A stretch of 5,452 nucleotides of DNA from a virus (lineage: Duplodnaviria; Heunggongvirae; Uroviricota; Caudoviricetes): IMG/VR virus record IMGVR_UViG_2778261005_000009; one strand, written 5' to 3'. The notes beneath the pieces were generated by a model that ran no database searches, was not told the DNA's origin, and was given only the letters and a program-made list of their open reading frames with translations. The first letter of the stretch is position 1; each line of letters starts with the position of its first letter. Made by a program: the position numbers and the translations under genes. This document shows, in pieces, positions 1 through 3,943 of the stretch.

Positions 1-546
1 GAAAAACGAGTATTTTTAGTCATCCTGTTTACCTCTTTCTCAGGGAGTTTAGTCTCCAGGATTTCCGGGGCGGTTCACCTGGACGGCCTGAGCGAACCGA
101 TCGGGAAATTTTCGATGACTACTGTCTGGCAGCCGTCGCCGGATTTTCGACAACGGGCAGCAGTGTGGGGTATGGCTCTGCCTGAGCCGGAATTTACACC
201 TGCTGAGCTTGCCGCATTCCGGGATTACTGGATGGCGGAGGGGAAGGTTTTCACGCAGGTTCAGTGGGAGCAGAAATTTGCCCGCCACGTGCAGCACGTC
301 AGGGCACAGGTAAAACCAGTCAGCAAGGGGGGAAGCCATGCAGCATCAGGTGGCACGGCATCACGGGCAGTTCAGGAAATCCGGGCTGCACGCGAACAGT
401 GGGAACGTGACAACGGATTTATCAGCAACGGAAACGGCCTGGAAGCTGTGGGAGCTCATGGGGGAGGTGTATTCGAACCGCTGGACTCAGAAGAACGGGG
501 CCGCACCTTCGAAGCTCTGGATTGCCCAGATTGGTGCGATGACTGA
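1..546 (+). CDS. DnaT-like primosomal / replication protein, 5'-truncated (frame open from base 1)
   Basis: Frame 1 has no stop from base 1 to TGA at 544-546. The translation (..VHLDGLSEPIGKFSMTTVWQPSPDFRQRAAVWGMALPEPEFTPAELAAFRDYWMAEGKVFTQVQWEQKFAR..) matches the C-terminal domain of E. coli DnaT as I recall it (..[44 protein letters not shown]..). The similarity extends upstream of the ATG at 115, so the true start lies outside the window. The 3' boundary is uncertain because the ORF overlaps the P-like frame. Confidence 0.7.
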   Translation, partial: EKRVFLVILFTSFSGSLVSRISGAVHLDGLSEPIGKFSMTTVWQPSPDFRQRAAVWGMALPEPEFTPAELAAFRDYWMAEGKVFTQVQWEQKFARHVQHVRAQVKPVSKGGSHAASGGTASRAVQEIRAAREQWERDNGFISNGNGLEAVGAHGGGVFEPLDSEERGRTFEALDCPDWCDD

Positions 547-1000: not shown

Positions 1001-1033
1001 ATCTGAGAAACGATTTTGTCGGAGGAAATATTA

Positions 1034-1750
1034 ATGGAAACCGTATTTGACGCACTGAAAGCACTGAAAAAAGCCTCTTCACAGGTAGTGGCATCGCGCC
1101 TTGGAATCAGCCGCGAAGATGCTGTCAACGAACTGTGGAAACTGAAGCGCCGTGGTGAAGCGGATAACAAGGGGTCGATGTGGTGGCTGACTCAGACTGG
1201 TGAAAGTGAACCAGTGTCACCGGTACCGAAAGTGACAGCGCAAATGCTGACTGAGGCGATTGAACATCATGGCCCACAAACGGCGGATGAGCTGGCACTG
1301 ATGTTCGGGATTACCTCCCGCCGGGCGAATTCATCACTGGCCATGGCAATCAGCAAAGGGCGTCTGATTCGCGTGAATCAGGGCGGTAAATTTCGGTACT
1401 GCATACCGGGCGCTGATTTACCGGCAGAGCCGAAAGCCGCATCCATAACGGAAACGGATGGTAAAGCCTTTCCTCAGCCAGCAGGTGTTGCGTTACCAGT
1501 CGGGGAAGCGGAAACACAGGAAGAAATAAAAACGGAAAGTGTGGCGGTCACAGTGCAGTCACAGCCGTCGTTCACCAGAAAGCATCCGGATGGTCTGATT
1601 TTACCATCGCTGCATGTGGCTAACCGCGAGCTGCGCCGGGCAAAAGGTCAGGTTCAGAAGTGGGAGCGAGTCTGCGCCGCGCTGCGGGAGCTGAACAAGT
1701 GCCGGGATATTCTCCGGGATATTACCGCCACCAGAGAACAGCAGCGGTGA
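1034..1750 (+). CDS. DUF1627-like prophage protein with two winged-helix-like repeats
   Basis: ATG 1034 preceded by GGAGG (1021-1025) at 8-nt spacing; stop TGA 1748-1750. The track's TTG start at 1016 lies upstream of the SD and is unlikely. Two internally similar segments ([36 protein letters not shown] and [40 protein letters not shown]) look like winged-helix units. The DUF1627 name is from memory of lambdoid prophage proteins. Confidence 0.75.
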
Positions 1751-2064
1751 GTGGGTGGAAGACGTGGTGCCGGGCGGAAATCATGATACTCCGGCAGTGT
1801 GCGGGAACGATGAAGGTAAAAAGCGTTGGCGCACTTATCGGACGAACTGAAGCGGCAGTGAGAACGAAGGCACGGGAGCTGGGCATCAGCATGATGTTAC
1901 GTGGTGATTTTCACCCGTCGGCAAAATATTCTCAGCGTGATATTGAGCTGGCGCGGCAACTGCATCAGAGAGGCATGCAAAGAAGGGAAATTGCCAGAAA
2001 ATTAGGCATGCCGCTGCGCATAGTGAATAACTACGTTTATTTCGACAGGAGGGTGTCTGCGTGA
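1747..2064 (+). CDS. Small DNA-binding protein with GcrA-like N-terminal motif and NinH/Fis-like C-terminal HTH
   Basis: Frame 1 ORF ending TGA 2062-2064. Proposed start GTG 1747 overlaps the upstream stop (GTGA); alternatives are ATG 1783 and ATG 1810, all with weak [16 protein letters not shown]...[21 protein letters not shown] resembles the GcrA N-terminal HTH pattern, and [20 protein letters not shown] resembles the lambda NinH HTH (QTEVARRLKCSRGTVRKYV). Confidence 0.6.
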
Positions 2065-2288
2065 AAATCCTGTATCAGGATTACGGCCCGGTGGGGCAGG
2101 TGGTTATCAGCAGTACTGTAATGGAGTTTCGGAAGCATAACCGTGTGGTGGATGCTGTGCTGTTAACCTGTCCGGGGATATCGGCGAGTCGTGCAGGTGT
2201 GTTTATTATGAAGACGAAATTATATGGCAGTAAGGCGTGGATAAAGAAGGCGTATCGTGTAGCGTTGCAGGAGGTTAACAGTGAGTGA
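2061..2288 (+). CDS. Hypothetical phage protein (75 aa)
   Basis: GTG 2061 overlaps the upstream stop (GTGA) and is preceded by AGGAGG (2047-2052) at 8-nt spacing; stop TGA 2286-2288. No recognisable family. Confidence 0.6.
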   Translation: MKILYQDYGPVGQVVISSTVMEFRKHNRVVDAVLLTCPGISASRAGVFIMKTKLYGSKAWIKKAYRVALQEVNSE

Positions 2289-2592
2289 AATTAAAGAAAT
2301 GCCGGTAGTTCGTGACGGATATGGCTACTGGACACATCCTGAATATGAAAAATTCTGTGATGGTCGGGAATATATTTCAACGGAAGAGTTTAACGCCTGG
2401 ATGGAGGAAAATAATCTTCAATACGTCCTCTGCTTCAGAGATGAAGGATGTGCTGACCTTGATGCGTGTGATGCTGATATTTCTGCATGGGAACCGGAAC
2501 GACCAGAGGGCGATGGCTGGTTTATTGGTTCCATTCATGATACGGAAGATGGCCCGGTTTGTGTCTGGTTGCGAAATAAGGCTGAAGCATAA
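2281..2592 (+). CDS. Hypothetical acidic Cys-containing phage protein (103 aa)
   Basis: GTG 2281 preceded by AGGAGG (2268-2273) at 7-nt spacing and overlapping the upstream stop by 8 nt; alternative ATG 2299. Stop TAA 2590-2592. Acidic, with a CxDxDACDAD stretch. The overlapping frames 2312..2617(+) and 2377..2613(-) are rejected. Confidence 0.65.
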   Translation: MSEIKEMPVVRDGYGYWTHPEYEKFCDGREYISTEEFNAWMEENNLQYVLCFRDEGCADLDACDADISAWEPERPEGDGWFIGSIHDTEDGPVCVWLRNKAEA

Positions 2593-2939: not shown

Positions 2940-3497
2940 ATGAGCACTATTACCAGAGAACGCGCGGAGATTAAATCATACATCACAGGCTTCCTGAGCG
3001 ACTCGGCGCACGATAACAAGTCTTCAGACAGCCTGCTGGCTAATGTGTTTCGTATCGCGCTGGCATCACTGGAAGCAGAGCCGATAGCAATGGTAGTGCC
3101 TGATGAAATGGATTTGCTTACCTGCCATCTCGACGGTGTAACTAAAACATATGCTGATGGCTGGAACGCCTGCCGCGTCGCCATGCTTCAGGCCGGAAAC
3201 TTTCGGGAAAATAAGAATTCGTCAACCAACAATTTTCGGGAAATCTCGGAAACGTCAACCAGATCTCCGATAACTCTGGATGGCTGGATAAGCTGTACTG
3301 AGCGAATGCCTGAAAAGAGCCAGAACGTGCTTATTTCGATGAATATCGATAGCGAGGCTGGGCCATTAATATATTCCGCACGCTATCTCGGAGGCACGTT
3401 CCGGCGCGGAGGTATAGCAGTTAGTCCGGGTAATGATCTTAGGCAAGCAACCCACTGGATGTCGCTACCAGAACCGCCGCAGGAGGTGAATCAATGA
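2940..3497 (+). CDS. DUF551-like phage protein (185 aa)
   Basis: ATG 2940 preceded by AAGGA (2927-2931) at 8-nt spacing; stop TGA 3495-3497. The C-terminal segment (ITLDGWISCTERMPEKSQNVLIS...YLGG..F) resembles the DUF551 domain as I recall it. The linker contains an in-frame tandem duplication (see repeat feature). Confidence 0.75.
   Translation: MSTITRERAEIKSYITGFLSDSAHDNKSSDSLLANVFRIALASLEAEPIAMVVPDEMDLLTCHLDGVTKTYADGWNACRVAMLQAGNFRENKNSSTNNFREISETSTRSPITLDGWISCTERMPEKSQNVLISMNIDSEAGPLIYSARYLGGTFRRGGIAVSPGNDLRQATHWMSLPEPPQEVNQ
3198..3263 (+). repeat. Imperfect in-frame tandem duplication (2 x 33 bp) inside the DUF551-like gene
   Basis: aaCtttcgggaaaATAAGAATTcgtcaaccaAC (3198-3230) versus aaTtttcgggaaaTCTCGGAAAcgtcaaccaGA (3231-3263); encodes NFRENKNSSTN / NFREISETSTR. 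Confidence 0.6.
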
Positions 3498-3612: not shown

Positions 3613-3630
3613 TGCTGCGGGTGCTTGAGG
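3613..3630 (+). promoter_or_regulatory. 5' element of hok mRNA complementary to its 3' end (tac/fbi-like long-range pairing, 5' partner)
   Basis: tgctgcgggtgcttgagg (3613-3630) pairs antiparallel with cctcaacgcacccgcg (3993-4008): 6 bp, a one-nucleotide bulge (C3999), then 10 bp including one G-U. Confidence 0.45.
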
Positions 3631-3664
3631 CTATCTGCCTCGGGCATGAACACCAACGGCAGAT

Positions 3665-3739
3665 AGAGAAAAGCCCCAGTTAACATTACGCGTCCTGCAA
3701 GACGCCTAACATTAATCTGAGGCTCAATCTATGAACGGC
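3665..3739 (-). ncRNA. Putative Sok-like antisense RNA (type I antitoxin), about 75 nt
   Basis: Minus-strand sigma70-like promoter (below) would start transcription near + coordinate 3739. The transcript is antisense to the upstream in-frame ATG (3731) and its SD (GAGG 3719-3722). It ends in a terminator-like structure on the minus strand: outer stem ccucag/cugggg (3717-3722 with 3674-3679, one G-U), inner stem gcguc/gacgc (3690-3694 with 3701-3705), then U-tract cuuuucucu (+ 3665-3673). Ends are approximate. Confidence 0.4.
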
Positions 3740-3745
3740 AAATCT

Positions 3746-3774
3746 AGGTTAGCCTCTTACGTGCCGAAAGGCAA
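3746..3774 (-). promoter_or_regulatory. Candidate promoter of the Sok-like antisense RNA
   Basis: On the minus strand: -35 TTGCCT (+ coordinates 3774..3769), 17-nt spacer, -10 TAACCT (3751..3746). The -35 overlaps the hok SD region on the opposite strand. Confidence 0.35.
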
Positions 3775-3787
3775 GGAGAAGCAGGCT

Positions 3788-3943
3788 ATGAAGCAGCAAA
3801 AGGCGATGTTAATCGCCCTGATCGTCATCTGTTTAACCGTCATAGTGACGGCACTGGTAACGAGGAAAGACCTCTGCGAGGTGCGAATCCGAACCGGTCA
3901 GACGGAGGTCGCTGTCTTCGTAGACTACGAATCTGAGAAGTAA
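3788..3943 (+). CDS. hok: Hok/Gef-family type I toxin (51 aa membrane peptide)
   Basis: ATG 3788 preceded by AGGAG (3774-3778) at 9-nt spacing; stop TAA 3941-3943. Product MKQQKAMLIALIVICLTVIVTALVTRKDLCEVRIRTGQTEVAVFVDYESEK aligns along its length with plasmid R1 Hok ([52 protein letters not shown]) and is very close to chromosomal HokD/RelF as recalled. The track ORF 3731..3943 is an in-frame upstream extension (ATG 3731), possibly a mok-like leader reading frame. Confidence 0.9.
   Translation: MKQQKAMLIALIVICLTVIVTALVTRKDLCEVRIRTGQTEVAVFVDYESEK

Follow-up and report, generated by a model that had tools for sequence, protein, structure and literature searches.

The question that this locus raises is what kind of protein is encoded by the small gene directly downstream of a DUF1627 gene in a phage genome, and from which codon that protein is read. 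The stretch of DNA analysed, 5,452 nucleotides long and referred to below as the window, matches a lambdoid prophage of E. coli O157:H7 from end to end at 99.8% identity. In strain 2571 the prophage genes run from an IS1203 transposase through a truncated O-like (DnaT-like) gene and replication protein P to DUF1627; there follow a 'DNA-binding protein' (1783-2064 as annotated), which is our target, two hypothetical proteins, DUF4014 and DUF551, and finally hok, a YgiW-like protein, DUF968 and RusA. Given this gene order, the target lies in the delayed-early rightward operon, at the position of ren and the nin genes in lambda. The original prediction, made from the letters of the window, had called the product a candidate transcription factor in a prophage early region; the operon context bears out the setting, and DNA binding is probable.

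Two start codons have to be weighed for this gene. The RefSeq/PGAP model of the O157:H7 genomes begins at an internal ATG and yields 93 residues (Table 1), whereas the original prediction had chosen the GTG at 1747, and the translation that it quoted is indeed the 105-aa product that we read from the sequence. Homologues of 100-105 residues occur in Salmonella, Pantoea, Enterobacter and Franconibacter; their N-terminus is M-x-x-W, and W7, A10 and E11 are nearly invariant among them. A closer alignment of related loci, which returned relatives at 79-99% identity only, shows that GTG 1747 is kept across 86 related loci, in which codon 13 is often CTG (EILIL) and synonymous changes occur at codons 3, 9, 10 and 12. 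The close alleles that carry CTG have no ATG at the RefSeq start position, and they retain the upstream GTG; alleles from other contexts start with GTG or ATG, 3-6 codons ahead of the conserved Trp. It follows from the cross-genus conservation of W7, A10 and E11, together with CTG in place of ATG, that the RefSeq call is too short. On these comparisons ATG 1783 is probably the wrong start and the gene is probably annotated 12 codons short.

For the RefSeq model to be correct, the W-x-x-AE motif would have to be untranslated. The model is the one that PGAP has in the O157:H7 genomes, several database clusters are 93 aa long, and ATG is a stronger initiator than GTG. Yet the three conserved residues are kept in proteins of other genera that start M-x-x-W with an ATG, many close alleles have CTG where the model needs ATG, the changes in the disputed codons include synonymous ones, and the 93-aa product would lack half of helix 1 (residues 9-18) and the equivalent of GcrA W3. 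We therefore consider this model very improbable, and the same too-short start probably affects many of the 93-aa and 84-aa clusters in the databases. A longer frame was also considered and rejected: the maximal ORF of 134 aa, from GTG 1660, overlaps DUF1627 by 90 nt, and its extension is found in no homologue.

The conserved GTG overlaps the DUF1627 stop codon in the sequence GTGA, an arrangement that is kept in DUF1627-linked loci, and the 20 nt that precede it (CCAGAGAACAGCAGCG) contain no strong Shine-Dalgarno motif. The absence of a good Shine-Dalgarno motif and the presence of the overlap fit translational coupling, as had been proposed from the letters alone, and the GTGA is likely the site of termination-reinitiation. 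The arrangement continues downstream. DUF1627, the target, the phrog_1001 ORF and the phrog_1372 ORF are four consecutive genes joined by start/stop overlaps, namely the two GTGA sequences listed in Table 1 and an 8-nt overlap, GTGAGTGA, at 2281-2288; the three genes downstream of DUF1627 all have GTG starts. This pattern suggests obligatory translational coupling along an overlapping four-gene operon.

Table 1. Coordinates of the target gene, its parts and its overlapping neighbours in the window.
Feature	Position	Strand	Remarks
DUF1627 gene	1034..1750	+	Pfam DUF1627 5.8e-79; PGAP coordinates; upstream neighbour in 79/86 loci
Tandem-HTH CDS (target)	1747..2064	+	GTG start, TGA stop 2062-2064; 105 aa; from ORF list, sequence and full-length homologues
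GTGA overlap	1747..1750	+	target GTG 1747-1749 with DUF1627 TGA 1748-1750; read from sequence
N-terminal HTH domain	1756..1890	+	residues 4-48; GcrA-DBD / Myb-SANT-like type
Internal ATG, codon 13	1783..1785	+	start per RefSeq/PGAP (1783-2064), 93-aa WP_000603384.1
Inter-domain linker	1891..1932	+	residues 49-62
C-terminal HTH domain	1933..2058	+	residues 63-104; probably resolvase/Hin/IS21 (HTH_7/HTH_23) type
Second GTGA overlap	2061..2064	+	target stop with GTG of next ORF; sequence, ORF list
Next small ORF, phrog_1001	2061-2288	+	75 aa; PHROG match 8.3e-38
Hypothetical ORF, phrog_1372	2281-2592		103 aa; two genes downstream of target

The 105-aa product has a mass of 12.1 kDa and a pI of 11.1, with 21 K+R against 8 D+E. 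An AlphaFold2 model built with 21 homologues (mean pLDDT 85) contains two three-helix helix-turn-helix (HTH) bundles, with predicted helices at residues 9-18, 24-31 and 35-45 in the N-terminal bundle and at residues 63-74, 79-86 and 90-104 in the C-terminal one; at a pTM of 0.55, the mutual orientation of the two bundles is uncertain. The original prediction had named structure prediction as the check on its two HTH domains, and both are present, as bundles spanning residues 9-45 and 63-104, with sub-threshold Pfam HTH matches for the C-terminal half besides. The chain thus holds two independent HTH bundles joined by a short linker, as seen both in the model and in the separate detectability of the two modules. 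The two halves are themselves related (hhalign probability 93.2, with 34 columns aligned in register).

Scans with Pfam, NCBIfam and PADLOC give no family-level assignment for this protein: Pfam returns sub-threshold generic HTH matches, NCBIfam nothing meaningful and PADLOC nothing. The best PHROG match is PHROG 323 ('transcriptional regulator, D5-like'; E 1.2e-25), which aligns residues 5-104 to profile positions 147-248 of 319; the match covers a third of a long remote-homology profile, and its label is an annotation as far as the target's subgroup is concerned. The best whole-protein Foldseek matches, which are weak (E 0.02-0.14), are the bipartite DNA binders 2lvs and Tc3 1u78. A single-sequence search of the PDB also cross-matches residues 35-95 to the TPR repeats of LGN/Pins, with E to 2.8e-7 summed over repeats. 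We reject a TPR identity, since the match is a compositional and periodicity artefact of the stretch 'LG...GD...A.KY....L.LAR.L'; the same cross-match draws the 1621-aa protein P0135 into the profile search, and is a false-positive trap for the target's family.

For the N-terminal half we built a profile from 28 diverse homologues, and compared it with a GcrA DNA-binding domain (DBD) query identical to PDB 7YE1_G and 5YIU_A. The profile aligns with GcrA residues 2-46 by hhalign with a probability of 95.8 over 43 columns, and its score of 37.6 stands against 8.8 +/- 2.1 (maximum 17.8) for 100 shuffled targets, a z of 13.8. When the N-domain model is compared with 48,164 PDB chains, the GcrA DBD is the best match. 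Thus, we conclude that the N-terminal domain is a three-helix HTH of the GcrA-DBD type. The GcrA-like N-terminal motif noted in the original prediction is upheld by all of these comparisons, and is the most informative part of that finding. Pfam GcrA (PF07750) does not match the window protein at E<=1, and only some multi-repeat relatives rise above its threshold, among them P0154 with 34.9 bits (cut-off 26.9); the equivalent module of P0132, residues 59-102, scores 24.9 bits.

The residues by which GcrA holds its DNA are divided unequally in the target. In GcrA, W3, T32 and K39 contact the backbone, while R33, N34, I37, G38 and R42 make the base contacts and the m6A pocket (PMC5887438). The backbone residues are kept, as W7, T34 and K41; the others are not conserved, and are replaced by E35, A36, R39, T40 and E44. 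Since the backbone contacts are kept and the base contacts lost, the domain would probably enter the major groove as a monomer, much as the GcrA DBD does, but would read a different sequence. The likeness to the DBD of the Caulobacter crescentus protein (5YIU/5YIV; the N-terminal part of PF07750) consists in the three-helix HTH, the N-terminal Trp and the G-x-T...AV..K...LG recognition region. GcrA ends in a domain that interacts with sigma-70 and carries a CCCH zinc motif (PMC5887438), whereas the target has neither the GcrA linker nor that domain, and its module is instead fused to a second HTH, which occupies the place of the sigma-interacting domain. The CCCH motif is absent, since the chain ends at residue 105 and its only cysteines are C8 and C18. 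On its defining features, then, the protein is not a member of the GcrA family. Our literature searches, on GcrA-like phage HTH proteins and on DUF1627, returned nothing on the target protein, and the sole related item was the resemblance of the N-terminus of phage T5 A1 to the GcrA DBD.

The C-terminal half gives Pfam matches just below threshold, to HTH_7 (from residue 60; 21.9 bits, cut-off 23.8), HTH_23, HTH_3 and Sigma70_r4_2, and among PDB sequences a profile search finds IS21 IstA, a designed protein of HTH repeats and 2LVS (E 4.4e-4), a CRISPR-repeat-binding protein with two HTHs. The original prediction had given it a NinH/Fis-type label. Lambda NinH (PF06322, Fis-like nucleoid-associated), taken from the lambda record, aligns with the profile over 19 columns (NinH residues 19-37; probability 87.8, score 29.3), a match that covers helix 2-turn-helix 3 only, and the GcrA DBD and Hin reach similar scores of 26.8 and 26.5, the latter over 34 columns. 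Fis has a probability of 4.6% against the profile; no Fis-like fold was retrieved for the C half, and Pfam Phage_NinH does not match the target at E<=1. Mutation of NinH N18, R30, T32 or K35 abolishes or strongly reduces DNA binding (PMC7166090), and these residues align with Q78, L90, I92 and N95 in the target, so that none of them is kept.

The two proteins are alike in being small, basic HTH proteins of the lambdoid nin region whose 19-residue HTH core can be aligned. They differ in their architecture, for NinH forms a homodimer of chains that each have one HTH and are extended at the C-terminus (PMC7166090), and the target carries two HTHs in one chain. The NinH/Fis label is therefore not sustained, and from its profile matches we take the C-terminal domain to be a generic trihelical HTH, probably of the resolvase/Hin/IS21 type and not specifically NinH/Fis-like. 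From the N-terminal HTH of resolvases, Hin and IS21 IstA the target is set apart in turn by its HTH_7 score below the cut-off, and by having no recombinase or transposase catalytic domain.

Between the two heads, L51, G53, H56 and S58 are invariant in close homologues and K60 and Y61 nearly so; G53 is nearly invariant in the diverse homologue set as well. Judged by these alignments, residues 49-62 are unusually conserved for a linker, and they may form an arm that contacts DNA between the heads.

How common is this arrangement? When 1.84 billion cluster representatives were searched by profile, 1517 proteins passed E<=1e-3, of which 251 also passed E<=1e-10; the larger figure is an upper bound, because at least one of its members, P0135, is a TPR false positive. 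The top-scoring representatives were scanned with separate N and C profiles. Among the 148 that gave domain matches, the commonest architectures are N-N-C (47) and N-C (46), while roughly 30 proteins consist of 3-11 N modules in a row and some 13 others of 3-12 C modules. The occurrence of N-C, N-N-C and single-type arrays indicates that N and C are distinct, independently recurring modules, which are still mutually related. The original prediction had regarded the union of two different HTH types as unusual, which overstates the case for related halves in one of the two commonest architectures of the family. Tandem HTH readers are in any case well known, from Tc3 and paired domains, Myb R2R3 and Cbp2.

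The long arrays among these relatives are metagenomic proteins of 300-830 aa with 5-12 tandem modules, all of them unnamed. Those of N type (P0128, P0137, P0154, P0160) repeat a GcrA-DBD-like module, W-T-x-E-E...GRS..AV..KA..LGL, and those of C type (P0145, P0161) are HTH_7/23-like. Members of the family bear no database names other than 'DNA-binding protein' or 'hypothetical protein'. Of 5426 complete E. coli genomes, 790 (~15%) carry the gene, with a median of 2 copies, and poly-lysogenic O157:H7 carries 2-4 copies of the family per genome.

The surroundings of the gene change from one phage to another. In E. coli it follows DUF1627 in 79 of 86 loci, and the gene downstream encodes the 75-aa phrog_1001 protein or a DUF4406-like protein. 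A Salmonella Rac-like prophage has it after recE/recT and before xis/int, and a Pantoea prophage in a leftward-type operon before xis/int; in the P1-like phage D6, Serratia phage Parlo and many Vibrio phages it lies among small hypothetical early genes. Every context, whether lambdoid, Rac-like, P1-like (D6), Parlo or Vibrio, is thus an operon of small early genes. DUF1627 is the upstream neighbour only within E. coli, and no conserved partner gene is found across the Salmonella, Pantoea, D6, Parlo and Vibrio phages. The target behaves as a mobile accessory early gene.

Several features of the neighbouring genes deserve mention in their own right. The 103-aa protein of the window (2281-2592) is homologous to the product of the gene just upstream of the target homologue in Pantoea stewartii (locus L004, 4672-5004), and small early genes recur in shuffled order between the O157 and Pantoea stewartii prophages. 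The DUF1627 gene follows P, as ren does in lambda. The N-terminus of its protein (window 1016-1750) weakly matches winged-helix regulators (MarR/TrmB/AbiEi), and E-values of 2e-4 to 1e-2 are obtained with these regulators and with PHROG 'Ren-like exclusion protein' families. The O-like (DnaT-like) initiator gene of strain 2571 (window 1-546; locus L001, 4810-6546) is partial, its N-terminus missing, and adjoins the IS1203 (IS3-family) element; the prophage is thus probably replication-defective. A hok/sok-type toxin-antisense locus lies at window 3619-3943, comprising an Rfam sok match (3619-3793, 105.6 bits) and a PGAP Hok/Gef CDS (~3788-3943). Inside the DUF551 gene, at 3198-3261, there is a 31-nt imperfect tandem direct repeat with 74% identity and 33-nt spacing, which encodes the duplicated peptide N-F-R-E-x-x-x-S-S/T-T. 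In a search of the window for operator-like repeats and motifs, we found only short, chance-level repeats.

Taking these results together, we consider it fairly probable that the gene encodes a tandem-HTH DNA-binding protein translated from GTG 1747; to the narrower claim that this protein is a transcriptional regulator, as against an accessory protein of replication or recombination or an architectural protein, we would give about half of that confidence. We infer DNA binding, its bipartite mode, the coupling and a regulatory role, and by analogy the protein would most likely act as a bipartite, sequence-specific DNA reader early in lytic growth. It would probably be translated by re-initiation after the DUF1627 stop. 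The N and C heads would each place their third (recognition) helix in the major groove, at adjacent or nearby half-sites, and the basic and aromatic linker R-G-D-x-H-x-S-x-K-Y would span the distance between them, perhaps by following the minor groove or the backbone. The protein would then likely have an accessory part in regulating transcription, or some other DNA transaction, in lytic development.

The bipartite binding mode is proposed by analogy because the relative orientation of the domains is of low confidence in the model. Tc3 transposase, paired domains, Myb R2R3 and archaeal Cbp2 all bind DNA through two heads in bipartite mode. Like Tc3 (1U78), the paired domain, Myb R2R3 and Cbp2 (2LVS, 105 aa), the target has two trihelical HTH heads and a short linker in a chain of ~100 residues; it differs from them in sequence (identity 12-19%), in the low confidence of its geometry and in its setting in a phage early operon, and beyond the HTH superfamily we see no sign of common descent with any of them. 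Against the DNA-reader proposal it must be said that small HTH proteins can also work by protein-protein contacts.

Depending on which neighbours are given weight, the protein could instead be an accessory DNA-binding factor for replication or for site-specific or homologous recombination, and not a transcription factor; it could, for example, bind near ori or att, or help DUF1627 or RecET-type proteins. Such a role would suit a gene coupled to DUF1627 right after the replication genes (the truncated O-like gene and P) in most E. coli loci, placed right after recE/recT in Salmonella and upstream of xis/int in Salmonella and Pantoea, and it would suit a C head that resembles those of transposases, invertases and resolvases. 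However, the neighbours vary by genus and phage type, so that there is no constant partner, and the search for repeats nearby turned up none that resemble iterons or att sites. We regard this role as unlikely. The same positions, in the nin-equivalent region of the lambdoid prophage and between recombination genes and xis/int in the Salmonella and Pantoea prophages, would also be expected of a NinH/Fis-like dimeric nucleoid-associated protein, a DNA bender of low specificity that modulates recombination or the host nucleoid and is toxic when over-produced. The very basic pI and the alignment of the HTH core with NinH point the same way, but that alignment spans 19 columns with a score like those of GcrA and Hin, the Pfam NinH family gives no match, and the four residues on which NinH depends for binding are replaced. 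Moreover, the target has two heads per chain and not one HTH with a dimerisation element, and we judge a bender of this kind to be distinctly improbable.

The N-terminal head, conversely, could be taken to indicate a GcrA-like activator associated with RNA polymerase, in which this head would recognise (methylated) promoter DNA and the remainder of the protein would contact sigma-70. The relationship of the head to the GcrA DBD is clear, but the part that would contact sigma-70 is missing along with its zinc motif (PMC5887438), the residues of the base contacts and the m6A pocket are replaced, and Pfam GcrA gives no match at E<=1. It is extremely improbable, therefore, that the protein works in this way. 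The tandem-HTH DNA-binding protein thus remains our preferred reading.

What does this reading mean for the phages and their hosts? In the first place, the target is an uncharacterised member of a familiar kind, the small HTH proteins of phages and the tandem HTH readers, and it is no surprise that a phage early operon should contain a small protein of this sort. In practical terms, the analysis corrects the start codon and defines the domains, and anyone who clones the annotated 93-aa ORF will probably obtain a crippled protein, from which the conserved N-terminus of the first head is missing. A more ambitious reading, in which N-C and N-N-C proteins constitute a phage-borne family of their own, bipartite regulators whose GcrA-type head has been re-tuned to a new, possibly modified or phage-specific signal, and which would mediate cross-talk between co-resident prophages or reprogram host genes on induction, we find rather improbable. 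On that reading, the metagenomic proteins in which the same modules are strung into as many as 11-12 HTH heads would hint at a modular DNA-reading code. The GcrA-type module is widespread in enterobacterial and Vibrio phages, well outside the Alphaproteobacteria, and the domain structure is now defined for an unnamed 'DNA-binding protein' of E. coli that usually occurs in more than one copy.
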